Origin: an uncultured virus (IMG/VR IMGVR_UViG_3300042197_001981)
Taxonomy: Duplodnaviria; Heunggongvirae; Uroviricota; Caudoviricetes
Length of the DNA stretch: 64,000 nucleotides
Strand: one strand, 5' to 3'
Virus record (IMG/VR): IMGVR_UViG_3300042197_001981
The number at the start of each line of letters is the position of its first letter. Positions within the stretch are counted from its first letter, which is position 1. The position numbers and the translations under genes were made by a program. Shown piece by piece: positions 28,364 to 55,674 of this stretch. The notes beneath the pieces were generated by a model. That model made no database searches and was not told the origin of the DNA. It was given only the letters and a program-made list of their open reading frames with translations.

Positions 28364-28654
28364 ATGAAACCCGAACCACTTACCCGGAAACCCCGTCCAG
28401 CCCTGCTCGAAGCTGTGGTCTGGGCGGGGGCCGAACGCCTCGCCGCGAGCCTTCACGCTTCGCCCGACGGGTTCCACTACATTTTTTACCGCAGCCGCGT
28501 CGGCACCCTTCGGTCAGGCCCGGCAGCGGTCGATCCCGAGGTCGCCGCCCGGATCCACGAATGGCTGGCCGACGAGTACGATAGCGACGAGGTTCTCGAC
28601 GCGCTCGACCGCTGGTACGTCAACGAAGTACAGCCGTTAGTCAACCGGGTTTAG
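28364..28654 (+). CDS. Last early hypothetical protein, convergent with the giant gene
   Basis: ORF track; 18-nt overlap of 3' ends. Confidence 0.55.
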   Translation: MKPEPLTRKPRPALLEAVVWAGAERLAASLHASPDGFHYIFYRSRVGTLRSGPAAVDPEVAARIHEWLADEYDSDEVLDALDRWYVNEVQPLVNRV

Positions 28655-31600: not shown

Positions 31601-34600
31601 CATCTGGGCAAGCTCCATGGCCTGCTGTTGGTAGTTGCGGATCTCGAACACCCGCGGGTCAACACGGCCGCCGGGCCTGAATGATCCGGCCCACCACGCG
31701 CCAGAGTCCCAGTCGCCGTCTTGGTTCACGAACAGGTCACCGACCCCGGCCGCAAATGCACCTTCGATGGACGGCGTGGTTCCGTACGTTGCACGGCTGC
31801 GGGTCACGTCGAGGTCCGCCGGGTCGTAGGTCCCGCGGTTCCCGGTGGCGGACTTGATCTGGGTCTGGTTACGCACCAAGTACACGTCGGTCGGTTTGGT
31901 GCCGTCGACCTCGACAATGTTTCTGAACAGTACGCCGTCGTACTCGTCTTGGGTCTGCAGCCACATCTCGATTTCGTCGGTGGACGTCAGTTGCTTCTTG
32001 GTCTCGAGATCCCAGAAGGCGCCGATCCCGACTTCCGGCGGCGTCGGAATCCTGTTCCACCGGGCTCCAGCAGCGTCGACGACCAACGGGTTTTGCAAGC
32101 TCAGGTAATACGCGCCAACAAACGGGGTCGCGCCGGAATCGTCGGGTCTTCCCGCGGCGAACTCGCTCGCAATCGCCGGATCAACTGCGAACCAGCGGCC
32201 GGTCCAGTCGGCGCCGAAGTCTCGGTCCGCACCGCGGAACACGCGCAGCGGTTGCCCGTCGCCGTCCACGACCTTGCTGTCGCCGAACCAGTTGTCGAAG
32301 TTCGGCCCGTACTGGGCGCGGCTGAACATAGGTTGCCCAAGTTTTTGAACACTGGTTCTCATTTCTGGAGAAATGCGCACTGCCCAAATTTCTTTTCCGT
32401 TCGGGAGTTGTGTTTTTTCAACCTTGCCACTCCACTGTTTGACGTACTTTCCAATCTCGTTGGGCAGCATGGTGTCGTAGAAGCCTTTCATTCCTTCGCC
32501 GCCAACTTTTAGGTCGAGGCCCCTATAACCACGCTGTCCGTTTTTGCCGCCAATGTCTTCTAGTGCTTTTTTTGCAAGGTCTTTGCCGACGTGATCCGCT
32601 AATTGACTTTCTGATAAGCCGTCTCGTTCAATATCGGGTTCAACGTCATCTTCTGCTGGAGGGTTTTTCCATGCGGCCATCCAGTAGCCTTTGTCGTTCT
32701 TTCCGATAACCACTCGATCAACCTGCTTGCTTAAATCAAACCTTTCAGCCTGCGTTTCACCAGTTGTCCAACCAATCCAGTCCTTGCCACCATCCACGGC
32801 ATCGCGCAGTGCGCGTTTGAAGAGTTGGATGGGCCAAGTGGTGCGGAAGGGTGCGTCTGCCACCTGCCCGTCAGAGGTCAGGGTGGCATATCTCTGCCTC
32901 GCTTGTTCGACGGCAGCTTTGAGTTCAGTCCTTACTGCATCAGCATCACGGATCGAGTCGTATTCTACTTTTCGTCCAGATGCGATGATTTCCTTTAGAG
33001 AGAGCGGGAAGCCATTCTCTTCACGGATTGCATATTCTCTAAGTTGTAACTTCTCTTCCGCGTCCTCCTTGACTTTCTTCGCTACTTCAATGTCTTCTGG
33101 AGAGGTGTCTTCCTTATATCCCTTCTTCCTGCCTGCCTGATGCCTATCAGACTGGAACTCCTCCACAAACAATCCCTGACTGCCATCGGTCAATGTGCGT
33201 TCGTTGACGCGCATGTGTGCGACGTAGTTGGGGATGTTTAAGAAGTGGGTGGAGGTGTATCGACCGCGAAAATCCCCTTTCCTAGAGTTCAGAACATCAA
33301 GTGCTTTCTGTTTTGCTTCTTCCTCTGTTTTGGAAAGTTCAATGAAATTACCCTCTGCGTCCCTAAGTCTAGAATTGAAACGCACTTGAATCGGGTAATA
33401 CCAAAGACCATCTTCTGATCTTTGTATTTTGTAATCGGAAGGTAGTTCTGTTAATGGTTTGGCAGGCATCGTCAGCACCACCTCACGGTAGTTATCGCCG
33501 CCGGGAAGTGTGTATTGGGCGAATTTTGGGTCACCTTTTCCTTTGGAGTATGCGTTAGCATACGCTCTCCAGTCGTACTCTTTCTGCAAAAGTTGAGCAA
33601 AAAACGCTTTGTCTTCCGGGTCTGTTGCACTTTCCCATTGTGCATATTGCTCTGGCATCGTCTCTTTCGCCCATTCAGAGACAGACATTTCACTCACCTT
33701 CCTAGGCTTGCTTAATGTCACTTCCTCAAGCCTAACAGCACCATCATCATTCAAGTACTGCAACAGCGCGTCCTTAGGAACCTTACCGTTGTTCTCCTTC
33801 GCCAGACGCTCGGCTTCCTGCATGACTCCAGTCCACTTCAACTCCTCGGCCTTGATACCGTATGCTGGGCTAAGTAGTGCCCGTATCTGTTCCAAGCTGG
33901 CTGAGCGCCCCTGAATTTTTTGGGCCACTACTTCTTGCGATTTAAGATAGAGGCCGCGGCTCCGGCGGATGTCGGGGCTGGTTTCTTGCGTGCGCCGCGG
34001 TGTAAAGACAATCTTGTCTTGGTCATTTATTAAAACAAACGGAGCATTTCTCATTTCTTCTGTAATGCCCCTAGCACGCATTCCTTTTTTAGGAAAGATA
34101 GATACTGGAATTATTTCGTTTGGCGCTACTTCTTGAGCAGCGTCCGTACGGCTTCTACCCTCGTGTTCTTCTGGGTAAACTACCCATACTTTTTTATCTT
34201 CATTCCATTCCGCGCCGATAAATGGAGGAGCGATAGCCTCTCCGACTTGAATTTTATCTTTAATAAAATCTTTTGTTTCTTCGCTGGATACTCCCACCGG
34301 TACAAGTTTTCTAAACTCTGATGGAAGCATTGGCACAACGAACCCAAAATAATCTATGTCAACTTGATTTGGCACGGAACCAATACCATTGACATCCCAG
34401 TTAATAGTTTGTCGGCTCCGGCGGATGTCGGGGCTGGTAGTTTGGAAACGCTGCGACAACGGGATCACATTGCCTTGGTCGTCGCGAGTTACAGGGTCTG
34501 CGGATTTTATTTGATTGGGCTCAAACACTACACGGACTGTTGGTAACTCTACTCCGTCATTATCAGGGTTAGCTTTTCTAAACTTTTCGTAACCACCTGC

Positions 34601-37600
34601 TTTTCTTACAGCTTCATCAAGGGAAGATTTGTTGTTGAAAACAATAGGGTTTTTTAGTTTAAGGTATGCAGTAGTTACATTATCCCCATAGAGAATCTTG
34701 GCGGCTTCCTCAGCTTCAGTGAACCATATACCTACCGGTTCAGATGCTTTTTTATCATAATTATCTCTATTAAAGAGTCGATTAAATACTGTAATGTTTT
34801 TTGTCGGAGATCCATGATACCAAGGTTTTGTTGTATATCCAGCAGCCCTCGCAGCTTGATCGACCAGTTCTTGCAACCGTTCGCGGTTTGCTTCTGGGTT
34901 TTGCGCGAGGCTCAAATACTCGGCGTCGAGTGCGCGGCTCCGGCTGATTCCCGTATCTGCACCACGCACCATGCGTACTGTATCATTGTACACCTGCCGG
35001 GTAATGTCGTTGACCTTCTGGCTGTCGAACCAGCCGACCACGTCGGCCATGAGCTGCTGGATCTTGGCGTACGAACGGCTGCGCATCTCGGCCTCGGTCA
35101 CCGTGCCGTACAGCATCTTTTGCACGCCCATGCGCAGGAACTCGGCGCCGTAGTCGACGTCGTTGCGGGCGCTACGGTACACAGACTTGATAGTCTTGCG
35201 CTGTTCGGCGCTCAGGCTCTGGGCTAGCTCGGTGTAGAACTCGACCCACTCGACGCCTGCGGCTCGGAGCGCGGCGTGGCTGGCCGCGTGGATAAATTCT
35301 TCCCGCATGGCCGCTTCGAGTACCGCCACCGGTTCGCCGACGAAAGCCATGGGGTTGTATTCAACGTAGGCACGACCTTGACGACCCTCGACCACGTACC
35401 GTGCGTCGACGCCAGTAAAGTTCGGCACTACGTTGACCCGCAGTTTCGAGGCCAAGCTGCCGAACTTCGCGTCGACGTGGGCCCGGACCTCCATGGAGCT
35501 TTCGGCCGGGGCGGTCAGCACGCTGCGGCTCTGCATGACGGTGCTGGTGTCCACCGGGCGGCGGACCACATCTTGCCAAGCGAAGGTACCGATGCCGACG
35601 TTCTCTGCGTCGCTCGGGTTATCCAGCGCCATGGTAAGGTCACGACCCAGCGCCGTCGAAAAGATTTGTGAACGCGCTGTATTCGCGTCGATTTCCTCGG
35701 CCGCGTAGGCCCGCCACGTTTCTTCGATGGTCTTGAGTTTCTTGGCGTCGCGCTTGGACTCCGGCGAGAAGATCAAACGGATCACTTCCCACGTCACCGA
35801 CTGCACTTCACGCGGCAAGTATGGATTACCGGCGTCAGTCAACGCCTTCGCCAGCCTACGGTACGGTTCAGCAAACACCGGGTATAGGCCCGCGACCCCG
35901 AGGTTGGAATCCTTACTTGAGTTCCCACCGCTGCCAAAGTTCTGACTGACCTCGCGGCTGGTTCCGCTCAGGGCCCGCCACAGCAACGCGGCTATGGCGT
36001 GTGTGTCCGTGGTGACGTGACCTTCCGCGTTTTGCGGGTCCACGATATTGTTGTAGAAACTGCGGACCTTGTGGGCCCCGCCGAGTTCCTCGTCCACGAC
36101 CGCCATGAGGTCCGCGTCTGCAGCCTTCAGGATGTTCAAAGATTTGGTGATCGCACCGTACCCGCCCCACGCCAACTTGATCGGTATGCCGGTCTTGGGA
36201 TTTTTAGCCGCATTCAAGAACACGCCGTCTGGTCGCACCGCCGGGTATTGCCGGTTAGGGTACTTTGTTTCTTCGCGCATACGCACGAACCAAGCCTGCT
36301 GTTGGGGGTTGAGTTCGCGCAACGTCTTGCCACGCATTTCCTCGAGCCGCTGCTTGGCTTGTTCTAGCAGCTCGGCCTTCTTGGCGCTGCTGAGTTGTTC
36401 AAAGATGATCGACCCGTTTTCGTCTCGGGCCAGACCGTCGTCGGCCTCATCGTCGAGTCTCGGCTTGACGCCCTTGGGCCACTTGTAGCTGCCGTTTTCG
36501 TTAAGCTCCGGTTGCGGTTCCCCGCCGCGCAACAGCCACTGAGCAGACATAGCTTCGTCCCAAGCGTAGTCTTGGTCGTTGGTCCAAATCTCCACGGTCC
36601 GCTGGCCCATCGCCACGTTCTGGAACCAGTCTTTCTGCGGGCTGAACACGGCCAACACGGCTGAGGCCCGCTCGAGCCCGATGCCGTGTTGGGTATCCAT
36701 GCCCTGCGCAATGATGTTCGCACCGTCGTACCACAGTTTTGCGATCTCGCGCAGGTCTTCCGGCACCAGATCGAATAACGTCTTGAGGTTTTCGCTGGTC
36801 TGTGCGACCAGCGTCTCAATGATGTCGTCGGCTTGTTGCTCGAGCAGTTCGGCGATCCGCTTGTTGCTCGTCTTGTCAGAGTTTTCCGCGATCTCACTCA
36901 ACAGGTTGGAGTACGCTCGGCTGCTCTTGGTGGTTAGATCCGACAACTCGTCGCTCTTGGCCATCATCCGTTCACGACGTTGGAGCCCGGCCCTGAACCG
37001 GGCCTGCAGCCCTTTACGCCGGACTACACCTTGGGCGTCCTTGGCGAAGTTTTCGCCGTCCGCCTGAATGTAGTCGTCGAACTCCGTGGCCGTAACCTTG
37101 CTTGGGTTGAACTGGCCTTTGTTTTTTCCTTTGTCGTAGCGTCGACCGAGGTCCTGAGCGACCATGGTTTTCAGGCTAACATTAAGCCGCTTGAGGTTGC
37201 TGCCGTTGGCTTCAGACTCCTTGATATTCTTTTGATGTTTAGCCCGTTCGTCGGCCACAAACTTTGCTAGCTCCGGGTAATCTCTGGCTACCAACGGAAG
37301 CTCGAGTAGTATGAGGGCCATGCGCCGGTACAGAACCGGGTTCCGCTCACGGATGACCGAGAGTTCGATCCGGTTGTTGGGGTCGACGCCTTCTTCGGTA
37401 CGTTTCTTCCCGGTCGGCTTACGGGTACCGACGGTACGGCCCGGCTTGGTGCGGCCTTTGACCTCGGCCGGATCTACCGCGTACACGACCCGCGACATCG
37501 AAATGATCGGCTGCGGGTTGACGAACTGATCCGCTACCTGCCCCGCGTTAGCCATCGGGTCGTTCGGATCCACGGCAGTAGCCGTGACCGGCGCCACGCC

Positions 37601-40600
37601 CTTCGCTGTGATCTGTCGGCCCAGCTCCGCCACGCGGTTCACCGCTTCTGAGATCCGTGCATTGTTGCCGCCCGGGTTGCGGTTGCTGAGTTCGTGGAAC
37701 GTACGCAACACAAAGCCCAAACCGTTGGGGTTGGCTACTAGGTCTTGGATCTGCTCGGAGCCGAGTTGGTCTTGGGCCATGGCCTCGACCAGCTGCTCGG
37801 GCGTGAACCCAAGGTCTTGGGCTACGCTTCCCGCTTCGGCTTCGGCACCCTGTGCGGCGAACGCCACCGCCAAGTCAAACTGTTGGGCAGCCAACGCGGC
37901 GTCCGGGTCGAGCTGGCCGTAGGCTTCGGCCGCCGCTTGCGGGTTGACGTGTACGTTCACACCGTCGAACACAACCGCTCGGCTGTAGTCGGTAGTTTCA
38001 AAGGTCGGGTACTCGGACTGTAGTGCGCCGAACTGTTGACCTTCGGCGGTCGTCAACGGCGGCGCTTCCGGGGTGGGCTGGACAAGGATGTCAAAGTCGT
38101 AGTCGACCCGGATCGGGACCACGTTCCCGTTTTCGTCCAAGGTCGCGCTGAAGTAGTCGTCGTCCTGCGAGACCGGCTTCTGAAGGTCTTCGCCGGTCCG
38201 CGGGCGGTAGCTGCCGTCTTGGTAAACCAACCCGGTGTCGGTAGCGGTAGACTCTTGTTCAAAATCTACAGCGAAGTCGATAGCGTCTTGGGTAGTCAGG
38301 CCCGGCACCAAGAAACTGTTTTCGCCCTTCGCGTCGTATCGGCCCACGATCCGCACGAAGTCGTACCCGCGGGACCTCAACCATTCTTCGGCCCGGGCGT
38401 TGTGCCCGACGTTCTCTTCTTCGGTCGCTACGGTATTGTTCGGGTTCTCCCCGGTCATCATGCCGAACGCTTGGTTCTGGATGATGTCTTGAATGTCCGC
38501 AGTCGAAATCGGCTGGTATCGGAGCGACTTGATCTGATGGTCCACCCAAGCGAAATCGGTGCGCTCGTTCGGGTTGGTCTGACCGAACAGCGGCCCGACC
38601 TTTTGGCCTTGCAGGTTCGCCGCCCGGCTGGCGCTGATCTGGCCGACGGTCCGCCCGTACGGCGCGGTTGCGTTGGCTTCGCGGATCGCCTGCTCGAGGT
38701 TGCCCAACGACTCTGCAATCTTGCGGATGGTCGGGGACGGGTTGGCTCCGCCGAATAGTCTGGCGATGAGGTCGATGAACTTCTGCACGAATGAACGTTC
38801 GCCGGTCTGGTCGAGCCCGGCCAGCTGCTTGTGGAACTTTTCGGAAGCCTTGAAGTGGGCAAGCATCTCGCGCACGGCCCGGATTTCGTCAAACGGTTCG
38901 GCCTCGTTGACCCGGCCCTCGAGCGCGTACCGCAGGTCGGCAGGCATCCGGTTGCCGTGGACCTGCTGTGCGCGGGTCCAAAGTTCTTCACGCAACCTGA
39001 ATAGCTCGTCACGAACCCGGGCCATGTTTTCGTTGGCTGGGTTGACGACCGCCTCGTCCAGCTTGGCGTGGCCCGCCAGCTCATGCAGCAGCGCGTCGAC
39101 CGGACCTCCGCCGTTGTCGGCCATGAGGTTCACAATGATGGCGTTGCTGTTGGGCAAATACGCGGCCGCGGTCTCGAGGTTGTTCGGCAAGTAAACAAAG
39201 AACACCCGGGTGTTCGGGATTCCTGTTTCCAGAAGCAGCTTGGCTGTTGCACGGTGCAGCTGGCTTTTGGCGCTGCGCGCCACCGACCCAATGATGTCCC
39301 GCAGGTCGGTCTCGTTGTTCAGGCTATGCCGCTTGATTTGTTCGGCGTGCTTGGCCCGTAACTTGGCTACCGCGGTGACCTTGCCCGGGCTCAGGCTAGT
39401 CAGGTGCGAGTCCAGCATGAACTCCAGCAAGTTGGTCGGGAGCTGTCCGTCCAGTACTCTTGTGACCGCTAGTTCCAGCGGGGTGCTGGGGGCCGTGAGC
39501 TGTCCAGCCTGCGCCCGTTGCAACACCTCTGCGATATCTTGGTCGGTCGCGAGGTCCGACATATCCAGACCGGCTGCAACCTCGCCGCCGATGAGCTGCA
39601 GTAGTTCGGCCGAATCGGTCACGACGTCCGGGTCGATGCCCAAGGTCGTGGCCGCGTTGCGCAACTCGCTGTTCAGTTCGGCTGGCACCTTGCCGCTGAC
39701 AAAGTTTTCCAACCGAAAGTCCCGGTTCTCATCGACGACCCGTTGCGTTCTGGAAGTGAGCGGCGGCCCGCTGAATTGTTGTTGACGTTGCTTGCGACGT
39801 TGGGTGCGTTGCTTTTGACGGTTGCGGTTAGCCGCTTCGTTTCGGCTGATGTCGGTACGGACCGCGGTTTCGATGGCGTTTGAAATGTTGATGTTCGAGT
39901 TACCATACGCCTGCACCAAACGTGCGGCGCTTTCGTCCGCCACGAACACCCAGCTGGCATCGCCGTTGGGTGCGAACACCCGGACGTGCATAGACTCGAC
40001 GTCGCCTGCGTCGTCGAGCCGGACGTTTGCAAACAGCGGCTCGGTCGGAAGCGAGTAGTCGGTGTTGCCGTAACGCATGACGCCGTTGTCCAGCACCGTG
40101 GCGACTTCGGTTTCTTGACCAGCTTGGCCTACGAACCTGCGAGGCGCACGGCGCGGGCTGACCCGGGCCGGTTCGTCCACGACCGAGTTGAAGCCCTCGA
40201 ACTCGCCACTAACCATGTCCGGGTTCGGGGTGATCTCGAGCGGCGGGTTTCCGTCTTCACGGTCCAGCAATACGCCGGACTCTTCACTAATGCGGACCCG
40301 ACCACGCTCGTTGTTCAGCACTACGACCCGACCTTCGAGTTCTCGGAACGTACGCTCGTAGGCTGGTACGACCGGTTCCTGCTGCACTTCCGGTGCTGGC
40401 GGCGGGGTCGACTCGACCTTGCGTTGGTAGTGGTTGCGTACGTCGTTAGGGGTGATCTGCGGCCGGCCGTTCTTTTCACCGCTCGGCGCAATGGTCAGAA
40501 GTTCTGCCATGTCGATGCCCAACCGATCCGCCAGCTTACGGGCCAACTGGGTCGGCACCGCGTTCGGCGTCCGGGCTGCGGTGGGTGCGACCGGTGTAAC

Positions 40601-43297
40601 TATGCGGGCTGGGGTGTCTTGTTCTTCGACGCCGTTCAGGGCCTGCACCACCGAGTCACGAACGTCTCTGGGGGTAATGAGTTCATCGACCGGGCGGAAA
40701 CTACGCTGGGCCCGGCGGGTCAGGTCTTTCAACACAGCAAGTGTTTGTGGTGAATTGCCGGTCTCTTCGAGCTGTTTGATGGTCTGACCCAACACATCGA
40801 GCTGCAGCTGTTGCGCGGTACCGGTACGGAAATCTTGCTCGACCTCTGCGGTCAGATCTTTACGGAACGCCTTCAGCGGGTTCAAGGGCACCGCGCCGCT
40901 GCTGACTGCCGTGACGGCACTACCAATGAAGCCGCCCAACACGAAAGCCTTCAGACCGTTTTCGAGGGCTTCACCGAGTTTGAGTTCCCGGTTGTTGTAC
41001 ATGTCCAGCACAACCGACTGGGTAAACTCGTCCACAAACTCTTCCGCCCCTTCAGCAAAAGCCTGCTTGGGGATATTCTTGTAGGCCGACTTCAGCACGT
41101 CGTCCGAAATAGCACGCACCGTGTTGTACAGTTCATCACCCCCGAGGCCGGTACGTCTGAAAGCCGACGCAACTTGGCTGGTGTACCGCCTGAGCTGACC
41201 GATGTTGTACCTTTCAAAGGTCGTAACTTCGGCACCCGGCCCAAGGAACCGGTGCATGGCGCCCATGGTTGCGACCGTAATAAGCCCCGAAATCATGCCG
41301 TCCGACACCGCCATCTGACGAGCTTCGTCGTCGGTGTATTTACGGCTTCCGTCTTCGTTGGTTTCATTCCGTGCGTTAATGAAAGAGTTCGCGTAGGAAC
41401 TGTGTGCGCTACGGGTGAACGCGGTACCGTATTGAGATGCGGTGGCGCCCGCGTACGCAGCGGTTCGGGGAGCGTCCGCAATGATGTCACGACGCATGGC
41501 CCTAAAAATCTTTTTGGGGTTTGCTTCGGCACCAGCCGCCGTGTACTTGCCGACGCGGCCCTTCAGGAAGTTGCCAACCAAACCTTTGGTTTCGCCACTG
41601 AGCACGTTGTCGATTTGCCGGATACCCCAATCGCGGATGAATGTGTTCGCGTTGCGGAGCGCTTCTGGGGCCAGCTTAGTGGTTGTCCGGGCCGCCGCAC
41701 CCAGTGTTGCTTTGGCCGCCAAACCAGCACCTCGGGCAATAACGATGTCGGCTACGACCGGCACCAGCGTCCGCAGTCCCTCATACACCAACCCCGGCTG
41801 GTCGCCCATGTAACCCAGAACCATGTTGCGGTCACGTTCGCGCTGCACGTCGGCTATCATCCGGTCCTCGAACATGTTGTAGGCCGAGTCCCAACCGACT
41901 AGGCCGGTCAGGCCCATGCCGACGCCTTGTAAAATAGTGGACCCCGCGTCAGGAATCGACCGCAGCACGCCCTTGGTTTTGAGCCACGTAGAACCAGAAG
42001 TTTCTGGGTCCATTTGGTCAATGTACGACTCGACCATCTTGGCTTGGTTGTCAAACTTGTCAGCATTGTCAACCACCCAATCAGCATACCGTTCATCAAA
42101 TTCATGCAGCGCATTATTTATCTGCTTGTAGTTGCCGGCGATGGCCTGCGTGCGTAGAGACTTGGCGAAATTGAGTTCCCGTTCGTCGAGTCCTGCTGCC
42201 CGGGCGCCTTTATCAAAGATATCCTTCGGCAGCATGGTTGCGCTGGGGAGCGGCACCGTGGCTCCGCTTCCCGGCAGCGTTACGAAATTGTTCTCGGGAG
42301 CTTCAAAGTCAGCATCCGTTTCGAGCCGCTGCAAAACCGTGTCGGCCATAGCCTTCGTAAACTCTTCGCGAGTGTATTCTTCCTTGATTGGGTCCTTGGT
42401 CGGCAGCTTGTCGTACAAAGAACCGGCAAGTTTTTCTGTCGAAACATATTTATTTTTTACTACCCCACCAACTTCTGCTGCTTCTTCTGGTTTAACAGTT
42501 TTTTTAAGAGCGCCCGGTGAAGCATAAGGTATGTACGCGTCACCAATTTTTTTTCTTTCTACGGCAGTTTGCGCGGCCTCTTGCATTTCCTCGAGGTCGA
42601 CTGTGCTGCCGAACCGTTGTTCAGCCAGACGAGCCAACTCGCCCATGCGTTCTGCCTGCCAGCCAGTCATGCCGTTCTTGCCCGGCCGGTTCAGTTGCTC
42701 GGCTACGTCTGCGTACCGCGGGTCTACCAGACCGGCGTTACGTTGCGCGTCGCCGTAGAAAGTAGCACGGTCCTTGACGACCTTTTCGTCAGGGTTAACC
42801 CACACCCGTCGCTTGTCGTCGGATGTCGGGTAGTCAATGAACGAAAGATTATTGTCCCGGGCGTAGTTGATCCGGGCCGCTTGGATATTCGATGCAGTGG
42901 CTAAGGTGGTCTTTACTTCGTCAAGTTCGGCTTGGTCAGCCGATCCAGCACGCAGTGATTCGGCTAAGCTGCGGAGCCTAGTGGCATCTTCGATACGTTC
43001 TTGCCCCTCGAAGTCGTTGGCTAGCAGTTCAAAGTCTTTGGTTGGGTCAGCCAACGGCAACTGCGTAAACGACTCAAACTCTTGCTGGGCGGCAGCTTGG
43101 TCTTTGCCAGTGAACAGTCCGCGCTTGCGGCCCAATTTGTACATGCTCTGGTATAGCTCCCCGTAAACTTCATCGGGGTTATGACCTTCGGCAACCAAGG
43201 CCGGGGCAGCGTAACCAACATACTCAACTAGGTCTGCCGCACTCGTAACAGACTTCTGACGTTCAGTTTCCCAATCAGCGAATTTTTTGACCGACAT
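28637..43297 (-). CDS. Giant polyvalent (probably virion-ejected) protein, 4886 aa
   Basis: Uninterrupted 14.6-kb ORF containing zincin HExxGH, two ART-PolyVal-like domains, and ParB-like, HhH-glycosylase-like and DUF3293/SAM-lyase-like modules. Confidence 0.9.
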   Translation of the reverse strand: MSVKKFADWETERQKSVTSAADLVEYVGYAAPALVAEGHNPDEVYGELYQSMYKLGRKRGLFTGKDQAAAQQEFESFTQLPLADPTKDFELLANDFEGQERIEDATRLRSLAESLRAGSADQAELDEVKTTLATASNIQAARINYARDNNLSFIDYPTSDDKRRVWVNPDEKVVKDRATFYGDAQRNAGLVDPRYADVAEQLNRPGKNGMTGWQAERMGELARLAEQRFGSTVDLEEMQEAAQTAVERKKIGDAYIPYASPGALKKTVKPEEAAEVGGVVKNKYVSTEKLAGSLYDKLPTKDPIKEEYTREEFTKAMADTVLQRLETDADFEAPENNFVTLPGSGATVPLPSATMLPKDIFDKGARAAGLDERELNFAKSLRTQAIAGNYKQINNALHEFDERYADWVVDNADKFDNQAKMVESYIDQMDPETSGSTWLKTKGVLRSIPDAGSTILQGVGMGLTGLVGWDSAYNMFEDRMIADVQRERDRNMVLGYMGDQPGLVYEGLRTLVPVVADIVIARGAGLAAKATLGAAARTTTKLAPEALRNANTFIRDWGIRQIDNVLSGETKGLVGNFLKGRVGKYTAAGAEANPKKIFRAMRRDIIADAPRTAAYAGATASQYGTAFTRSAHSSYANSFINARNETNEDGSRKYTDDEARQMAVSDGMISGLITVATMGAMHRFLGPGAEVTTFERYNIGQLRRYTSQVASAFRRTGLGGDELYNTVRAISDDVLKSAYKNIPKQAFAEGAEEFVDEFTQSVVLDMYNNRELKLGEALENGLKAFVLGGFIGSAVTAVSSGAVPLNPLKAFRKDLTAEVEQDFRTGTAQQLQLDVLGQTIKQLEETGNSPQTLAVLKDLTRRAQRSFRPVDELITPRDVRDSVVQALNGVEEQDTPARIVTPVAPTAARTPNAVPTQLARKLADRLGIDMAELLTIAPSGEKNGRPQITPNDVRNHYQRKVESTPPPAPEVQQEPVVPAYERTFRELEGRVVVLNNERGRVRISEESGVLLDREDGNPPLEITPNPDMVSGEFEGFNSVVDEPARVSPRRAPRRFVGQAGQETEVATVLDNGVMRYGNTDYSLPTEPLFANVRLDDAGDVESMHVRVFAPNGDASWVFVADESAARLVQAYGNSNINISNAIETAVRTDISRNEAANRNRQKQRTQRRKQRQQQFSGPPLTSRTQRVVDENRDFRLENFVSGKVPAELNSELRNAATTLGIDPDVVTDSAELLQLIGGEVAAGLDMSDLATDQDIAEVLQRAQAGQLTAPSTPLELAVTRVLDGQLPTNLLEFMLDSHLTSLSPGKVTAVAKLRAKHAEQIKRHSLNNETDLRDIIGSVARSAKSQLHRATAKLLLETGIPNTRVFFVYLPNNLETAAAYLPNSNAIIVNLMADNGGGPVDALLHELAGHAKLDEAVVNPANENMARVRDELFRLREELWTRAQQVHGNRMPADLRYALEGRVNEAEPFDEIRAVREMLAHFKASEKFHKQLAGLDQTGERSFVQKFIDLIARLFGGANPSPTIRKIAESLGNLEQAIREANATAPYGRTVGQISASRAANLQGQKVGPLFGQTNPNERTDFAWVDHQIKSLRYQPISTADIQDIIQNQAFGMMTGENPNNTVATEEENVGHNARAEEWLRSRGYDFVRIVGRYDAKGENSFLVPGLTTQDAIDFAVDFEQESTATDTGLVYQDGSYRPRTGEDLQKPVSQDDDYFSATLDENGNVVPIRVDYDFDILVQPTPEAPPLTTAEGQQFGALQSEYPTFETTDYSRAVVFDGVNVHVNPQAAAEAYGQLDPDAALAAQQFDLAVAFAAQGAEAEAGSVAQDLGFTPEQLVEAMAQDQLGSEQIQDLVANPNGLGFVLRTFHELSNRNPGGNNARISEAVNRVAELGRQITAKGVAPVTATAVDPNDPMANAGQVADQFVNPQPIISMSRVVYAVDPAEVKGRTKPGRTVGTRKPTGKKRTEEGVDPNNRIELSVIRERNPVLYRRMALILLELPLVARDYPELAKFVADERAKHQKNIKESEANGSNLKRLNVSLKTMVAQDLGRRYDKGKNKGQFNPSKVTATEFDDYIQADGENFAKDAQGVVRRKGLQARFRAGLQRRERMMAKSDELSDLTTKSSRAYSNLLSEIAENSDKTSNKRIAELLEQQADDIIETLVAQTSENLKTLFDLVPEDLREIAKLWYDGANIIAQGMDTQHGIGLERASAVLAVFSPQKDWFQNVAMGQRTVEIWTNDQDYAWDEAMSAQWLLRGGEPQPELNENGSYKWPKGVKPRLDDEADDGLARDENGSIIFEQLSSAKKAELLEQAKQRLEEMRGKTLRELNPQQQAWFVRMREETKYPNRQYPAVRPDGVFLNAAKNPKTGIPIKLAWGGYGAITKSLNILKAADADLMAVVDEELGGAHKVRSFYNNIVDPQNAEGHVTTDTHAIAALLWRALSGTSREVSQNFGSGGNSSKDSNLGVAGLYPVFAEPYRRLAKALTDAGNPYLPREVQSVTWEVIRLIFSPESKRDAKKLKTIEETWRAYAAEEIDANTARSQIFSTALGRDLTMALDNPSDAENVGIGTFAWQDVVRRPVDTSTVMQSRSVLTAPAESSMEVRAHVDAKFGSLASKLRVNVVPNFTGVDARYVVEGRQGRAYVEYNPMAFVGEPVAVLEAAMREEFIHAASHAALRAAGVEWVEFYTELAQSLSAEQRKTIKSVYRSARNDVDYGAEFLRMGVQKMLYGTVTEAEMRSRSYAKIQQLMADVVGWFDSQKVNDITRQVYNDTVRMVRGADTGISRSRALDAEYLSLAQNPEANRERLQELVDQAARAAGYTTKPWYHGSPTKNITVFNRLFNRDNYDKKASEPVGIWFTEAEEAAKILYGDNVTTAYLKLKNPIVFNNKSSLDEAVRKAGGYEKFRKANPDNDGVELPTVRVVFEPNQIKSADPVTRDDQGNVIPLSQRFQTTSPDIRRSRQTINWDVNGIGSVPNQVDIDYFGFVVPMLPSEFRKLVPVGVSSEETKDFIKDKIQVGEAIAPPFIGAEWNEDKKVWVVYPEEHEGRSRTDAAQEVAPNEIIPVSIFPKKGMRARGITEEMRNAPFVLINDQDKIVFTPRRTQETSPDIRRSRGLYLKSQEVVAQKIQGRSASLEQIRALLSPAYGIKAEELKWTGVMQEAERLAKENNGKVPKDALLQYLNDDGAVRLEEVTLSKPRKVSEMSVSEWAKETMPEQYAQWESATDPEDKAFFAQLLQKEYDWRAYANAYSKGKGDPKFAQYTLPGGDNYREVVLTMPAKPLTELPSDYKIQRSEDGLWYYPIQVRFNSRLRDAEGNFIELSKTEEEAKQKALDVLNSRKGDFRGRYTSTHFLNIPNYVAHMRVNERTLTDGSQGLFVEEFQSDRHQAGRKKGYKEDTSPEDIEVAKKVKEDAEEKLQLREYAIREENGFPLSLKEIIASGRKVEYDSIRDADAVRTELKAAVEQARQRYATLTSDGQVADAPFRTTWPIQLFKRALRDAVDGGKDWIGWTTGETQAERFDLSKQVDRVVIGKNDKGYWMAAWKNPPAEDDVEPDIERDGLSESQLADHVGKDLAKKALEDIGGKNGQRGYRGLDLKVGGEGMKGFYDTMLPNEIGKYVKQWSGKVEKTQLPNGKEIWAVRISPEMRTSVQKLGQPMFSRAQYGPNFDNWFGDSKVVDGDGQPLRVFRGADRDFGADWTGRWFAVDPAIASEFAAGRPDDSGATPFVGAYYLSLQNPLVVDAAGARWNRIPTPPEVGIGAFWDLETKKQLTSTDEIEMWLQTQDEYDGVLFRNIVEVDGTKPTDVYLVRNQTQIKSATGNRGTYDPADLDVTRSRATYGTTPSIEGAFAAGVGDLFVNQDGDWDSGAWWAGSFRPGGRVDPRVFEIRNYQQQAMELAQMRMKQFSRNLNDAMKAEGNAVDPADLNLALGTTEPTVSDAARRAADDARAAAYAAADEAYTAAPAMKRYRELLNDAKTQYGVDGDKAAYTRNVEQARQVLENSREKRMRAVAYAAADQAHATAIRDARAASLVPLRAAMRGAMARLQANAPAVAEAVADLRGAVDELSAQLRDELAIDDPVRAVIDQNLGVYLVRRYRLHHEEGYAARLMSDPELAGLRDKGREFFEKSWIKDTYELWREDVKYAVYSDAEVMSLVRAEAAALDIGTKKLAEYVSQHGKQPNPTAAAAERTNLTRFMQKQEVPAELREVMGEYVNPVTNALNTYAELARFLGTQRALNQYTDIGVKSGWLVTADQIAAEPDKYFSYEPLTKTTKTRGGNPLSNFYAEPEIVEAFESMFNPSPASQQTAIQRAQRAAAWVTGMSMASMTLLSLGFYVRNVVGNGFFMWMNGYVPNLDDLKQSYYGVKEVYGGDLDQFGAKLVALGIAKTNLRENLLRDVLRGVVDNPEDAALRLLSATDELASPRGWLAKSENFLSAPAKKLAEVAAAIDLQYRVAYWAHEIRVLENAYRNDPNPPTREQIEQMAARVVNRTSQGSQRNPPIVKEFTRSGLGTIFNSFFRFTSEMVRMPVEIIGRGLEETRSGNAVLRNRGLKRLAGIGTMTAMVGYGIPELLKLMFEIDDEEEEAARRGLPEYARDASLLFTRDDDGTINSWDLTFVNPLSMWTDPVARAMNHIAAGRYEQAVLATMRGFGSTLLSPQILTDAMISLYNGVNEYGQPIWLQDDHLGEKAMKMAKHIGSTALGARTPKKIWQAVSSYLDGGIYDEEAQVATPLKIIATEFMPVRQRTYDPARLAGRAFGELRIRNTDLKADTTKQLRSGENLSRADVFQILDDHERKNRKIARDLRSISRGFLKLGVSERDLKKVATDKGISERRFNLAYKRGQYERYVPPEALFADIERNLGESGQAKPRIRYIREWLEQRGRLNPVD
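33957..34438. repeat. Exact 26-bp direct repeat flanking an AT-rich domain cassette
   Basis: cggctccggcggatgtcggggctggt at 33957-33982 and 34413-34438; encodes TSPDIRRSR on the minus strand. Confidence 0.95.
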
Positions 43298-51097: not shown

Positions 51098-53330
51098 ATG
51101 TTCCCTACCTACACACCAGACGAAGCCGAAAGCCGGCAATACATTTCAATTACCCGACCCTACAACCTCAAGCTACCACACGAAGCCGAATGGTTTATTC
51201 GGGCTATTACTGACCTGCGCGAGGCTAACTGTTGTTTGGTTGAATATACCAACGGCGTAGAAATTTGGAGGCACCGCAGCAGTGTGCGCCTATGAACCCG
51301 ATCGACATTGACCAGTTTTGCCCTTTGCCTCCGGCCCGCAAACCGTGGGAAACCGACACGCCGACGCTGATCTCAGCGCTGTTCGTGCTGGCCGCGTCCA
51401 TTGAGAGCGAGGATGGCGTAGCCAATGGGTGTATCTACGAGGCAGCCCACAGGCTGGAAGAACTCTATAATAAAGTACATGAGCCTTAACGAATCACACA
51501 TCGTCGGGATTGTAACCGTGCTCTACGCTTGGGTCGGCGTTTCGTATGCCGCGAAAGGCGAGTTCCCGTGGGCGCTGACATGGCTGGCTTACTCGCTGGC
51601 CAACGTGGGACTTATTTGGGCGGCGAAAGAATAAACCAATGAAAGACAAAACTACCACAGAAAGATATCGTGAGCATTCAGAGATGCTCGGTCGTATTGG
51701 CTCATTGATTCCAGACGAGTTTTTTGCCACGGACGAATCAACGACCGAAGAAGCCGTAGGATTGTTGCTTGAAAGATATTATTCGGAAATGGCAACCAAG
51801 TTTTGGGGAAGGAACAACAAGCAATGAAACCATACTACTACGTTTATCGTTTTGGACACGGCATGCCGACCGTGCGCCACGAAACACTGAAAAAGGCGCA
51901 AGCTGAGGCCGAGCGTTTGGCCAAGAAACACCAAGGGTTCCAGTTTGAGATCCTTGAGTTCAAGGGTTTGTCCAGCCTCCATGACTCGATCACCTTTTGG
52001 GTGGACGGTGTTGACCCAGATGACAACGAGTACGTCAGCGACGGACACGGAAACGAGTGGGCCAAGTGCGGACCGGATTGCGACATGGAAGTGGTTCGTG
52101 TTGGGAAAGTGCAATGCTCATGTCGGGAGCAGCAGGTAAAGCCTGAGTTGACCAATGAACCGGAACCTAAACAAGTTTGGGAAAAATTCTGGGATCTCCT
52201 AAATAAACTGGAAAGCAAATAATGACTGATAAAACAGACATATGGGCCGTTAGTGACCGATTTATCGACACCGTGCTGGATTATTACCGCAGCTATACCG
52301 ACGACGAGCTGACGCAAGTTTTCGCCAGAGGCCCGTTCGCAGGTATGTCCGAGCGCGAACTTTACGAGCTTGTGAAACATTGGGACGACAACCGAAAAAT
52401 CGTGCGGTTGCAGCCGAACGCCGACAAACGAAACTTGCAGCCGAACGCCGACAAATGAACGCTGTGATGAGAACGAAAAAACAGGACGAAAAGTGTCCAT
52501 ATCCGCCGAGTTCAACACCGCTTACCGATGAGGCCCACGCCCGCTGGGCCCAAGGCAAGGTCAGCTGGATCGACGAGATGGCCAGACTAGAACTCGAATC
52601 ACTAGAGCAGGCGCGGCTATTAGGCATGTCCGCCGAACGTGAGTGCGACCTTCGCGGCGAGCTTGAGCGTTGGCGCAACTGCGCCCGAATGCTGGCCGGA
52701 TTAGGTATGCCCAAGAGCTGGCAAAATTCTGGCGAGTGGTACAAAGCAATGGAATTTTACCGAAAACTACAAGAACAATCCAATGAAACCAAAAACGTAC
52801 AAAATCCTGAATGACTGCGTCGGCAACGGCATCGAATATGGTTGGAACCGAGCGCATAAGCATACCGATCAGCCGACCCCAGAGGTCATCAAAGATTGTA
52901 TTGGGGAAGCCATCATGCTGGAAATATCCGAAGATTTTTCTTTTGAAGACGACGAATGACCGCTTGCAAAAACAAACAGGCTAGGGTACGTTGCTCGCCC
53001 ATGTCGACCAAAAAGAAAATCAAATTTCCACTGCGCGGCCGTTACGGCATTAGCGCTACCATAAGGCCACAAAAAGCGAACAAGTGGGTCCTAAGGTCAC
53101 AAACAGGATTCATACGGTTTGGTGGTACCGAAGGGGATGCCCACAAGGTCGGTTACGTCGACTTCGACGGAGGGCCGTTTGTGGCGCTGGGGGACAACAT
53201 CGGCAACCTGCACCCTTTGCTACCTGACGAAATTGTCACTCATATCGAGTTTATCAAAGGAACCGGACTGTGCGTATTCACCAAAAATAAACATGAAGAC
53301 ACTGTACCCACCTCAGCAGAAAGCACTTGA
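51098..53330 (+). CDS. Cluster of small hypothetical ORFs (51098-51295, about 51292-51489, about 51479-51634 with TM, 51639-51827, about 51824-52222, 52222-52458, about 52455-52814, about 53001-53330)
   Basis: Contiguous coupled plus-strand ORFs with no recognisable families. Confidence 0.5.
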
Positions 53331-55674
53331 ATTTTTCGTTGGCACTCATCAAGCCAACCGCAACACCTTAGACAGTAGCATGGTCGGCACCGGCAAGACG
53401 GTGGTCGGCTGCCACTTGGTACAGGCTCTGGATAGGCCGGTCGGGGTAGTGTGCCCGAAATCGGTCCTAGCGTCGTGGCGTCGGGAGCTGGAAGCCCATG
53501 GGGTGCAGCCGCTGTTCGTGTTGAACTACGAAAAGATTCGTAACGGGCGGACCCCTTGGCTGACCAAGACCGGTAAAAAGGCCATGCGTTGGCAGGTGCC
53601 CCCAGACACGCTTCTGATTTTTGACGAGGTCCACAAATGCCTACCAGAAGGAACAAAAGTAGCCGCACCTGATGGGGCCGTTGAAATCCAATCTCTCCGT
53701 ATTGGAGACTCAGTGGAAACCCCCATTGGACCTCGGCCGGTTACGGCAATTTGGGAAACTGGGTATAAAGACATTTTATCCTTTACAACTGAAAAAGGTG
53801 ATCTATTATCGAGCCATGACCACAAGATATTCACAGAAGAAGACGGCTGGATTCGTGCCGACGAAATCCGAGAAGGACACACTGTGTTCGTGCACCCGAT
53901 GTGGAACAAGGCTAAAAGATCAGTCGGGCAGGTCGAAGATGTGTCGACCATGTTTCTGGGAGTCAAGACGAGTAACAGAAACTCGGAAATGTGCGATTTG
54001 CGAGGCACCCATAACACGAGTACCGAGCAATTTTACTGTTCCAAAGTCAAAAACTACGTGCAGTCGAAAATGCTCGAGCCTGCTTATGTGGGTAAATACT
54101 CCACGGCTTCGAGAAAAAGCGGCACAAAATATGAAACGACTGCAGCAGGAAAACCCATTACCGTTCAAAAAACGATGGGAGGACATGAAATCATCCAACC
54201 CAATGGACAACTTATCAACCCGGAAAATAGCTTTGCAAAAAGCACATGCCACGAACTTAGCGAAAGGCAACTACGAAAAGAATTTAACTGGCGGAAATGG
54301 AAGAGGACTGACGGCTCCCCAACAAGCATTGTTGAGCGATCTATCAAACGGGTGGGTGGCCGAGCATGTAATATGGGCCGGGGAAAAAGGAAAAAAAACC
54401 GGATGGCCAATTATGATGGTGGATCTTGCCCTTGTAGAAAACAAATGGGCAGTAGAATTGGACGGCCCATCCCACAGGAGCTCAACAGCAAGAATCCGAG
54501 ACCAGAAAAAAGACAAGCTACTGACAGAGGCTGGATGGAAAGTTCTACGGTTGAAGAACGACGAAGCATCGGTCTCCCGCGTGCTAGAGTTCTTCGGGTC
54601 AGTAAAATGAGCCAGCAAAAATGTTGGGACATTGAAGTTGCTGATGCCTCATGTTTTTTTGCAGAAGGTGTACTGGTACATAACTGCAAAGGAGCCTTCA
54701 CCCAAAACGCGCAGCTGTTGATCGCAGCCAGATCACAGGGTATCCCGGTGCACATGCTGTCGGCGACCGCTTGTCAAGACCCCACAGAAATGAGGGCCTT
54801 GGGGTACGCGCTCGGACTGCACAGCCTCAATAGCCCCACTGACGGACTGTACTCGTGGCAGGGCTGGATGCGAAAGTTCGGCTGCGCCATGGACATTTGG
54901 AATAGTTGGTACCTGCGCGACAAAGAAAAACTGGTGGACCTGCACGGCGTCTTGTACGGCGCCGGAGGCGTGGCTAAGCGCCTGAGTGTGGCGGACTTCC
55001 CGACCAGCTTCCGGGAAAACAGAGTCCACCTACTGCCGCTCGAGTGTGCCGGCAGCGTTAACAACATTTTCAAAAACGCCGGGATCGGTCACCAGCAACT
55101 GGTCGACTACATTCTGGAATCAGAAACCCCAGATGAAGAAATTGAAAACCAAGAGCCGTTCATTGTGCGGCTGCTGCGGGCCCGGCAAGAGGCCGAGCTA
55201 ATTAAAATACCCGAAATGAGCACTTTAGCTGACGACTACTTGGACGACGGCATGGCGGTCATTTGCTTCGTGAACTTCCGGGAAACCGCGCACGCATTGG
55301 CCGAGCGGTTGGGGTGCGCTATTATTGAAGGCGGCCAGTCCGCCGACCAGCGTCAGAAGATCGTGGACGACTTCCAAGCAGGGCTGACCCACTCGCTGGT
55401 GGTGAACATCGAAGCCGGAGGCACCGGGCTGAGTCTGCACCACCAGAGCGCCTGCGCCCGTCCGCGGGTGTCGCTCATAAGCCCGACCTACAACGCCAAG
55501 ACGCACCTGCAGGTTCTGGGCCGGACCCACCGCAACGGTGCCCTGAGCGATTCTTTGCAGTTTGTAGTGTTGGCTGCGGACAGTGTCGAAGAAACTGTAG
55601 CCGCCGCCATCGACCGTAAATGTAAAATGCTTGCAACCCTGCACGGTATTGAATACCAACCCCTGAACCAATGA
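53293..55674 (+). CDS. SF2 (SNF2-like) helicase containing an intein
   Basis: Q motif LYPPQ, Walker A GTGKT, DEVH, SAT, AGGTGLSL and QVLGRTHR. Confidence 0.9.
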   Translation: MKTLYPPQQKALEFFVGTHQANRNTLDSSMVGTGKTVVGCHLVQALDRPVGVVCPKSVLASWRRELEAHGVQPLFVLNYEKIRNGRTPWLTKTGKKAMRWQVPPDTLLIFDEVHKCLPEGTKVAAPDGAVEIQSLRIGDSVETPIGPRPVTAIWETGYKDILSFTTEKGDLLSSHDHKIFTEEDGWIRADEIREGHTVFVHPMWNKAKRSVGQVEDVSTMFLGVKTSNRNSEMCDLRGTHNTSTEQFYCSKVKNYVQSKMLEPAYVGKYSTASRKSGTKYETTAAGKPITVQKTMGGHEIIQPNGQLINPENSFAKSTCHELSERQLRKEFNWRKWKRTDGSPTSIVERSIKRVGGRACNMGRGKRKKNRMANYDGGSCPCRKQMGSRIGRPIPQELNSKNPRPEKRQATDRGWMESSTVEERRSIGLPRARVLRVSKMSQQKCWDIEVADASCFFAEGVLVHNCKGAFTQNAQLLIAARSQGIPVHMLSATACQDPTEMRALGYALGLHSLNSPTDGLYSWQGWMRKFGCAMDIWNSWYLRDKEKLVDLHGVLYGAGGVAKRLSVADFPTSFRENRVHLLPLECAGSVNNIFKNAGIGHQQLVDYILESETPDEEIENQEPFIVRLLRARQEAELIKIPEMSTLADDYLDDGMAVICFVNFRETAHALAERLGCAIIEGGQSADQRQKIVDDFQAGLTHSLVVNIEAGGTGLSLHHQSACARPRVSLISPTYNAKTHLQVLGRTHRNGALSDSLQFVVLAADSVEETVAAAIDRKCKMLATLHGIEYQPLNQ
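53638..54684 (+). mobile_element. Intein (349 aa) inserted just after the DEVH box
   Basis: Block A CLPEGTKV, block B SHDHKIFT..GW, block F CWDIEV...FFAEG and block G VLVHN followed by extein Cys. Confidence 0.92.
53816..54610 (+). CDS. Zn-finger plus DUF559/Vsr-like homing endonuclease in the +1 frame inside the intein
   Basis: CxxC..CxxC, CxxC..CSRKC, NPM, GGNG..T..Q, VDLA...AVELDGPSH...RDQKKD..L...GWKVLR. Confidence 0.85.
   Translation: MTTRYSQKKTAGFVPTKSEKDTLCSCTRCGTRLKDQSGRSKMCRPCFWESRRVTETRKCAICEAPITRVPSNFTVPKSKTTCSRKCSSLLMWVNTPRLREKAAQNMKRLQQENPLPFKKRWEDMKSSNPMDNLSTRKIALQKAHATNLAKGNYEKNLTGGNGRGLTAPQQALLSDLSNGWVAEHVIWAGEKGKKTGWPIMMVDLALVENKWAVELDGPSHRSSTARIRDQKKDKLLTEAGWKVLRLKNDEASVSRVLEFFGSVK

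Follow-up and report, generated by a model that had tools for sequence, protein, structure and literature searches.

Introduction

Intein endonucleases encoded out of frame with the intein that carries them are already known. What is new here is a sense-strand, +1-frame, Vsr-like version in phage helicase inteins, and it is described for one intein in a stretch of 64,000 nucleotides (nt) from an uncultured virus of the Caudoviricetes (IMG/VR record IMGVR_UViG_3300042197_001981), called the window below. In actinophages, Gosselin et al. 2025 (10.1101/2025.01.02.630785) described contiguous inteins with antisense LAGLIDADG, antisense Vsr-like and frame-3 endonuclease VII-like open reading frames (ORFs). 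They credited Gorbalenya 1998 with the first non-canonical cases and proposed that a free-standing endonuclease gene had invaded the intein, with evidence of continued spread. Phillips et al. 2026 (10.64898/2026.09.14.751524) reported a +2 LAGLIDADG ORF in a cyanobacterial dnaX intein, with frame-dependent selection. In the loci described by Dassa et al. 2009 (PMC2677866), Vsr-like endonucleases are free-standing genes flanked by the two halves of a split intein, and a stop after the N-terminal splicing domain (IntN) is followed by 27-51 nt of non-coding DNA; the hosts were genes for gp41 helicase, IMPDH, DnaE, NrdA, NrdJ, ligase and terminase. The EDxHD homing endonucleases have I-Bth0305I as their prototype, and its catalytic domain is PDB entry 3r3p (Taylor et al. 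2011, PMC3239194). A hidden out-of-frame HNH gene in a phage methylase insertion was reported by Arsenault et al. 2025 (PMC11855218).

The locus in the window shares features with each of these systems. As in the actinobacteriophage inteins of Gosselin et al., the endonuclease ORF shares its DNA with the stretch between the splicing blocks, and the intein frame stays open and is reported as unstructured there. In that preprint, however, the Vsr-like ORFs reported are antisense only and the hosts are DNA polymerase, minor capsid, terminase and thymidylate synthase genes, whereas the version found here is sense +1 in superfamily 2 (SF2) helicases. The dnaX intein of Phillips et al. is alike in its sense-strand overlap, frame-dependent selection, mini-intein and intein-free alleles and Walker-B/DE insertion, and differs from the window in its LAGLIDADG family, its +2 offset and its cellular host gene. 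The fractured genes of Dassa et al. resemble the window locus in nuclease family, in strand and in having hosts from phage DNA metabolism, and there too the nuclease 3' end runs into the C-terminal intein part, but they have a stop after the N-terminal half and separate host ORFs, whereas frame 0 of the window is stop-free and the precursor contiguous. I-Bth0305I has a Vsr-like catalytic domain and the same two-part build of a DNA-binding region followed by the nuclease. Unlike the window nuclease, which has paired Cys4-type ribbons and lies inside an intein, it is encoded by a group I intron and has an N-terminal NUMOD/helix-turn-helix region, a feature of the prototype that may not define the family. 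In the methylase insertion of Arsenault et al. the host frame is also stop-free across an endonuclease in another frame; it differs in having no splicing domain and in the HNH family.

A reading of the window made from the sequence alone (the sequence-only reading) had presented the overprinted nuclease as a third arrangement of intein and endonuclease. As a novelty this has to be given up, because intein endonucleases out of frame or on the antisense strand have already been published (Gorbalenya 1998 as cited, Gosselin et al. 2025, Phillips et al. 2026). Our searches of the intein-endonuclease literature turned up no Vsr-like endonuclease at +1 on the sense strand of a helicase intein, although the supplements of the two preprints may list such cases.

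A complete intein with a predicted nuclease gene in the +1 frame

The intein frame was examined first by its motifs and domains. Frame 0 of 53638-54684 reads CLPEGT...SHDH...CWDIEV...VLVHN and then C, with 0 stops in 349 codons. The catalytic set of a class 1 intein was complete (C1, block B S59-H-D-H62, H348-N349 and the +1 Cys), and we take these motifs to be block B and block F/G of the intein nomenclature. C1, D61, H62, H348 and N349 were the invariant columns of a 5-sequence intein alignment (A3). Pfam Intein_splicing matched the excised 349 amino acids (aa) with 38.2 bits (cut-off 35.8) over residues 26-349, leaving a large middle unmatched, and matched the whole precursor with 34.9 bits, slightly below the cut-off. 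A Pfam scan of the ~230-codon middle, the linker between the two splicing domains, gave no domain. The precursor itself is an SF2 (SNF2/ResIII-like) helicase ORF at 53293-55674 on the + strand, 793 aa plus stop with the intein included, and no stop occurs in frame 0 from 53293 to 55671. Pfam matched Helicase_C at 2e-10, and ResIII and SNF2 weakly. ATG 53293 is most plausibly the start within the long open frame 53119-55674.

The +1 frame is open from 53663 to 54607 and closes with TGA 54608-54610; it contains ATGs at 53672 and 53816. The third frame of the intein region has 28 stops. ATG 53816 straddles two block B codons, taking its AT from CAT (His60) and its G from GAC (Asp61). At the other end, the nuclease TGA lies within the first strand of the C-terminal splicing domain (IntC), which overlaps the final ~8 nuclease codons. 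Pfam DUF559 matched residues 201-251 of the +1 ORF with 37.6 bits (cut-off 20.6). In a 14-sequence nuclease alignment (A1), the window nuclease retained 17/17 invariant columns, including G159-G-N-G162, D203, E214, G217, H220, D229 and K232; E214, D216, H220, D229 and D203 were invariant or almost so. The A1 profile matched PDB sequences 3hrl (endonuclease-like protein, 1.6e-10) and 3r3p (1.9e-5). The AlphaFold2 model of the nuclease had a mean predicted local distance difference test score (pLDDT) of 76.8, and at least 90 across the C-terminal core. Foldseek placed 3r3p, 3hrl, 1cw0 and 1vsr in the top ten for this model. The top row was a mitoribosomal protein (6z1p_AS), and 3r3p ranked second (probability 1.00, E 1e-2, template modelling score on the target 0.58). 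Pfam gave no NUMOD in the nuclease, whose N-terminus has CxxC pairs instead. Together, the +1 ORF is predicted to be a Zn-ribbon plus DUF559/Vsr-like (EDxHD-type) nuclease.

The nuclease was compared with 1.84 billion representative proteins by phmmer, giving 1,233 matches at E <=0.001, of which 330 were at <=1e-10; most were 130-330 aa long. The homologues of that length (P0006, P0007, P0009 and others) had been taken as free-standing genes, an assignment that was withdrawn because gene callers list overprinted ORFs separately too.

Thus the sequence-only reading was correct in its coordinates and description, as checked by frames, motifs and domain scans of both frames. Its two main structural claims, a complete helicase intein with a domain-less middle and a separate, complete nuclease gene in the +1 frame with its own ATG and TGA, held as well. 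The features of the locus are listed in Table 1.

Table 1. Features of the helicase intein locus in window coordinates.
Feature	Position	Strand	Details
N-extein	53293..53637	+	115 aa; terminates at motif II ...LIFDEVHK; insert-free homologues read DE[CV]HK then CK
Class-1 intein	53638..54684	+	349 aa; precursor residues 116-464; C1, S59-H-D-H62, CWDIEV...VLVHN, +1 Cys at 54685
N-terminal splicing domain (IntN)	53638..53898	+	~residues 1-87; 79% aa identity to L046
Variant ATTA>GAAC	53805..53808	+	runs X3, X6; frame 0 Leu to Asn; +1 TGA three codons before ATG 53816
Homing-endonuclease ORF (predicted)	53816..54610	+ (+1 frame)	264 aa plus TGA
Cys-rich Zn-ribbon region (predicted)	53885..54085	+	nuclease residues 24-90; CxxC...CxxC twice; conserved with P0009, L048, L005
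Deletion allele, X3 contig	53895..54470	+	576 nt = 192 codons absent; joint 53894 to 54471; in frame for both ORFs
Frame-0 linker	53899..54585	+	~229 codons; stop-free; no domain
DUF559/Vsr-like catalytic core (predicted)	54416..54568	+	nuclease residues 201-251; D203, E214, D216, H220, D229, K232
C-terminal splicing domain (IntC)	54586..54684	+	RVLRVSK...CWDIEV...VLVHN; 82% aa identity to L046
C-extein	54685..55674	+	329 aa plus stop; first residues CKGAFTQ

The nuclease stop also overlaps a frame-0 ATG (AAAATGA, 54596-54610), which is similar to the overlapping start and stop codons of fractured genes at their C-terminal halves. As the start of a split-intein half this overlap was rejected, since the frame-0 Met is not conserved in L046, an independent IMG/VR contig with 65% nuclease identity.

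Both frames are open beyond chance

Stop codons in frame 0 across the nuclease ORF were then compared with shuffled sequences. When the synonymous codons of the nuclease were shuffled with its protein fixed, 8.0 +/- 2.2 frame-0 stops were expected, and 11.6 +/- 3.0 when codons were drawn from the window usage, against 0 observed; in each of the two tests, 0 of 20,000 shuffles reached 0 stops. In the reverse test, shuffling the synonymous codons of frame 0 gave 3.4 +/- 1.25 stops in the +1 frame, where again 0 were observed, and 0.7% of 5,000 shuffles reached 0. These results showed that the intein and nuclease frames are both open far beyond chance.

The codons involved could be seen directly. 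Nuclease codons ending in T were absent before codons starting with AA, AG or GA (0/52), compared with 35/143 elsewhere in the ORF (Fisher 9e-6), and in the other window genes 21.6% of codons at sites before AA/AG/GA end in T. A frame-0 stop arises only where a T-ending nuclease codon precedes AA, AG or GA, and a silent T-to-C change at the nuclease third position removes each of them. At a +2 offset, in comparison, Met followed by Ile, Met, Thr, Asn or Lys makes an unavoidable TGA, and the window nuclease has four such pairs (residues 1, 106, 124 and 200). Silent T-to-C escape from host-frame stops may explain why the offset seen is +1, and inheritance of the entire element from a common ancestor would explain it equally well.

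Substitutions follow the nuclease frame in the overlap

The window and its nearest relative, L046, differ mostly at the third helicase-frame position in the exteins and splicing domains. Differences per site at positions 1/2/3 were 0.35/0.26/0.57 in the N-extein, 0.18/0.10/0.53 in IntN, 0.04/0.12/0.48 in IntC and 0.40/0.32/0.67 in the C-extein. The linker values were 0.43/0.24/0.21, so that the excess fell on the silent position of the nuclease, because helicase-frame position 1 is nuclease position 3. The same switch of position was seen between the window and L048 and between the window and L049.

Codon differences in the linker between window and L046 were 19:128 (synonymous to non-synonymous) in frame 0 and 63:80 in the +1 frame, and in the splicing domains frame 0 gave 29:17. 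Amino acid identity to L046 was 79% for IntN, 82% for IntC, 65% for the nuclease and 45% for the frame-0 linker. This pattern points to an overlap in which the nuclease frame is under purifying selection and selection on the intein frame is relaxed. Stop avoidance and selection per frame were among the checks proposed in the sequence-only reading, and both came out in favor of its view that frame 0 stays open there solely to serve as a linker, with the linker counts above, no shuffle among 20,000 reaching zero stops, and the switch of substitutions to the nuclease third position.

Assembly check and population variants

Logan contigs of four sequencing runs from three studies were aligned to 53300-55000: X2 shares its sample with the probable source, a second study contributed X3 and X4, and a third contributed X6. 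At neither frame boundary did these contigs show an insertion or a deletion. The 5' boundary was covered by X2 (from 53866), X3 (53747-53894) and X6 (53492-53859), and the 3' boundary by all four runs. Cover of the middle (53927-54440) came from X2 alone; X4 and X6 had no contig there (a coverage hole). L046 aligned along the entire intein with 0 gap columns. Compensating indels, the possibility that the sequence-only reading had wanted checked, were thus absent from the contigs of all four runs, with the middle read by X2 alone.

Two variants were seen in these runs (Table 1). The X3 deletion allele leaves a 157-aa mini-intein (...FVH then PQELN...) and loses nuclease residues ~27-219; it was seen in a single contig (depth 5), whose shorter arm beyond the joint measures 148 nt, and the joint has a microhomology of 3 nt. 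No joint skipping the entire intein was seen in the four runs. Because the X3/X6 substitution introduces a TGA into the +1 open stretch ahead of ATG 53816 (53663-53815), that stretch is not conserved, and this ATG is the likely nuclease start.

The layout in related loci

Pattern scans for related loci used a 5-sequence alignment (A2), the 14-sequence A1 being too diverse; a scan of viral contigs with the single nuclease protein gave zero matches. The A2 scans gave 41 metagenome and 80 viral loci, to which 2 cultured phages were added, and tblastn of the nuclease matched these 123. After 9 matches shorter than 90 aa were left unclassed and 21 duplicates removed, 93 distinct loci of this subfamily were classed. 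In 87 of the 93 the nuclease was at +1 of a stop-free host frame (390-1833 aa, median 800). None was at +2, one was in frame (L102, a UvrD helicase), and in five no other frame was open across the nuclease.

Pfam was run on 28 stretches, namely 27 host-frame ORFs with the overlapping layout and the in-frame UvrD locus. Most of the 27 were SF2 helicases (ResIII, SNF2 or DEAD plus Helicase_C) with an Intein_splicing match spanning the nuclease; L047 and L005 were without any Pfam match, and several others were without an Intein_splicing match. In addition, tblastn of the nuclease against 50,697 phage records matched 34 (33 Vibrio, 1 Pseudomonas), each under one annotated coding sequence (CDS) called a helicase, a P-loop NTPase, a coil-containing protein or a hypothetical protein. 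In the two of the 34 that were inspected, Pseudomonas phage MR14 and Vibrio phage K391, the nuclease was at +1 of an annotated helicase CDS and was itself unannotated. The overprinted layout, as predicted in these loci, is common in phage helicases and routinely unannotated.

Other layouts of the same nuclease family were also found. L103 has the N-extein and N-intein followed by a stop, then the nuclease at +1, then the C-intein and C-extein back in the first frame; it is classed by this order as a predicted fractured gene of the Dassa type, and L007 as the 3' half of the same arrangement. In L085 and L115 the nuclease is a free gene immediately upstream of an intein-less helicase, and in L027 it is free-standing. 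For in-frame layouts, 10 long proteins were picked from the best 150 phmmer matches, and 9 of them, all UvrD helicases, had DUF559 in frame inside Intein_splicing (P0040, P0058, P0060, P0072, P0075, P0076, P0095, P0098 and P0107). At L102:1355-3856, too, a UvrD-type helicase has the same DUF559 nuclease in frame inside its intein. Vsr-like nucleases, which the sequence-only reading cited as free genes between split halves, are not confined to that setting, as these nine proteins show. The suggestion in the same reading of an intermediate between contiguous and split inteins fits the free-standing (L085, L115), split (L103, L007) and in-frame UvrD (L102, P0040 and others) members of the one family. 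P0043 (316 aa) and P0125 (559 aa) have the helicase N-extein, Hint, the DUF559 nuclease and a stop in one frame and no C-terminal intein part; they may be N-halves of split inteins with the nuclease attached, or may simply lie at the end of a contig.

Several relatives had further features. P0107 (1995 aa) has a second intein with LAGLIDADG. The helicase ORFs at L118:427-5361, L117:1513-5406, L121:295-5154 and L112:427-4167 (1247-1645 aa) have two or three inteins each, one with a +1 Vsr-like gene and the others with in-frame LAGLIDADG or Hom_end. At L064:1807-5052 and L086:614-4393, an intein-bearing helicase-like part is fused to an N6/N4 DNA methylase domain, and L086 has an extra Hint_2 match near residue 989. 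The +1 nuclease layout was also seen at L090:1942-3435 in a DnaX/clamp-loader-like ATPase (...IIVDE, C...VHN, CHTLSKQAWQALLKVLEEPP), with the host judged by eye. With the host so judged, L090 may link the phage helicase inteins to the dnaX insertion site of Phillips et al.

It is conceivable, if somewhat short of probable, that the +1 overprint is the dominant, stable state of a large unannotated phage intein family in the Walker-B/DExH motif of SF2 helicases and in a DnaX-like host. It would be stable because silent T-to-C changes at the nuclease third codon position can remove any stop in the host frame. If true, one nuclease family shows the free-standing, fractured, overprinted contiguous, in-frame and mini-intein steps of the proposed route. 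Apart from this reading, the natural free-standing, split-intein, overprinted, in-frame and deleted states within one nuclease family open the long-debated origins of intein-endonuclease partnerships and of split inteins to comparison. 'Decayed' or 'domain-less' intein middles in phage helicases are often a hidden intact gene for a predicted homing endonuclease, of the kind that annotation pipelines miss (MR14, K391). The linkers would also show what length of unstructured insert inteins tolerate, which would be of use for intein engineering.

Empty insertion sites

A scan with the C-extein gave 64 helicase loci at 40-45% identity, of which 54 were distinct. In 53 of the 54, DE[CV]HK was followed directly by CK, with no insert. 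L128 is an example of an intein-less relative. The remaining one, L129, on the same contig as L049, had a 1029-nt intein with the nuclease. As the insert is absent from 53 of 54 helicases, the intein is sporadic and the empty site conserved, as a homing element needs. The helicase relatives L001-L004 match the C-terminal domain only and are uninformative on the insertion site.

Initiation of the nuclease

The aligned 'MTT' start of the nuclease is made from CAT-GAC (His-Asp, block B) in the window, L046/L047, L048 and L049/L050, and from CAT-GAA in L005. Across 86 loci with the layout, a median of 4 codons separated the first ATG from the +1 stop before it (<=12 codons in 61/86), and the first ATG preceded the first CxxC in 80/86. 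GGAG, GAGG or AGGA was present at -18..-5 of the ATG in 36/80 loci, compared with 106/1201 for +1-phase ATGs taken as controls from these host ORFs (Fisher 8e-16, which is not a probability because the loci are related). In the largest subgroup, the 'VR[LMT]xDGT' group (L008, L009, L057-L060, L075 and others), the sequence is AAA GTG AGG TTG TCC GAT GG, with GAGG 7 nt before the nuclease ATG. Here the intein Arg codon AGG appears to double as the putative ribosome-binding site of the nuclease.

In the window itself, a sigma-70-like TTTACA-16-TATTAT (10/12) lies at 53782-53809 (+), and by consensus match alone its expected transcript start is the A of ATG 53816. There were 3 sigma-70-like matches in the region, compared with 1.0 +/- 0.9 in shuffles, and the X3/X6 variant destroys the -10 hexamer. 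The nuclease message might be leaderless in the window phage. RNA folding of 53760-53860 showed no unusual structure (z 0.97).

Proposed mechanism and alternative explanations

From the sequence comparisons above, a phage SF2 helicase very probably has a non-canonical intein in its motif II, with two same-strand genes, an overprinted predicted endonuclease and a stop-free linker. Frame 0 would encode the helicase precursor, in which IntN and IntC are joined by a ~229-codon linker whose sole sequence-level demand would be that it has no stop. Ribosomes in frame 0 would make the precursor, and the intein would excise itself to leave a helicase of ~444 aa. Other ribosomes would start independently at ATG 53816 and make the nuclease. 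During co-infection, the nuclease would cut intein-less DE[CV]HK^CK alleles, and repair would copy the intein with the nuclease into them (homing).

Several observations weigh against this proposal. Every Foldseek E value for the nuclease model was above 0.001. The nuclease middle, in the exact window sequence, was confirmed solely by a second run of the same sample. The 87 of 93 is valid for the subfamily and not for all DUF559 endonucleases, because the patterns came from the closest nucleases. The 36/80 count of Shine-Dalgarno motifs leans on one clade (the 'VRLSDGT' group), so that the loci are not independent, and at -18..-5 the window ATG 53816 lacks a core Shine-Dalgarno motif; there is just AAGGTGAT, which ends 14 nt before the ATG. 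The AlphaFold2 model of the frame-0 intein, made from 5 sequences, was poor throughout (mean pLDDT 34.5), and a disordered linker (pLDDT ~24 and no secondary structure in that model) is for this reason only weakly supported.

The nuclease might instead be reached by programmed +1 ribosomal frameshifting near the end of the N-terminal splicing domain, giving an N-extein-IntN-nuclease fusion that ends at TGA 54608. The fusion-like in-frame architecture of P0043 and P0125 is what such a product would look like, ATG 53816 has no clear Shine-Dalgarno motif, and the +1 frame of the window is open from 53663. However, most relatives have a +1 stop a few codons before the conserved ATG (median 4; 3 in L048 and L049/50), population variants of the same phage have a TGA 3 codons before ATG 53816, and Shine-Dalgarno motifs are enriched upstream of nuclease ATGs. 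Frameshifting is disfavoured because stops sit just upstream of the ATGs, and we consider it very unlikely.

It is just as hard to credit that the +1 ORF is an inactive relic, open only through translation of the helicase, in an intein that persists without homing. A deletion allele without most of the nuclease does circulate in another metagenome, so that its loss is tolerated, as a relic would allow, but the window ORF is full length compared with its homologues and keeps 17/17 invariant columns, including D203, E214, H220 and D229. The substitutions between window and L046 are concentrated at the nuclease third codon position, and the +1 frame has 0 stops where 3.4 were expected on shuffling frame-0 synonymous codons, a result reached by 0.7% of 5,000 shuffles. 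An error of sequencing or assembly, with two compensating indels displacing a nuclease that is truly in frame, would find some precedent in the in-frame DUF559 inteins of UvrD helicases. It is already contradicted by the indel-free contigs of 4 runs from 3 studies, by the gapless alignment of window and L046 over the whole intein, and by the identical +1 offset in 87 distinct loci and 2 cultured phage genomes; moreover, a frame displaced by error would carry ~8 stops. We regard this possibility as negligible.

Surrounding window

Blastn of the locus against the 50,697 phage records gave zero matches, and ten of the other large window ORFs scanned with Pfam (the giant ORF named next not among them) had no match at 0.001 or better. 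This phage-like window contains a giant ORF of 4886 aa at 28637-43297 on the - strand, and it also encodes a DUF2800/PD-(D/E)XK protein, a family A DNA polymerase and a DUF5906 primase-like gene.

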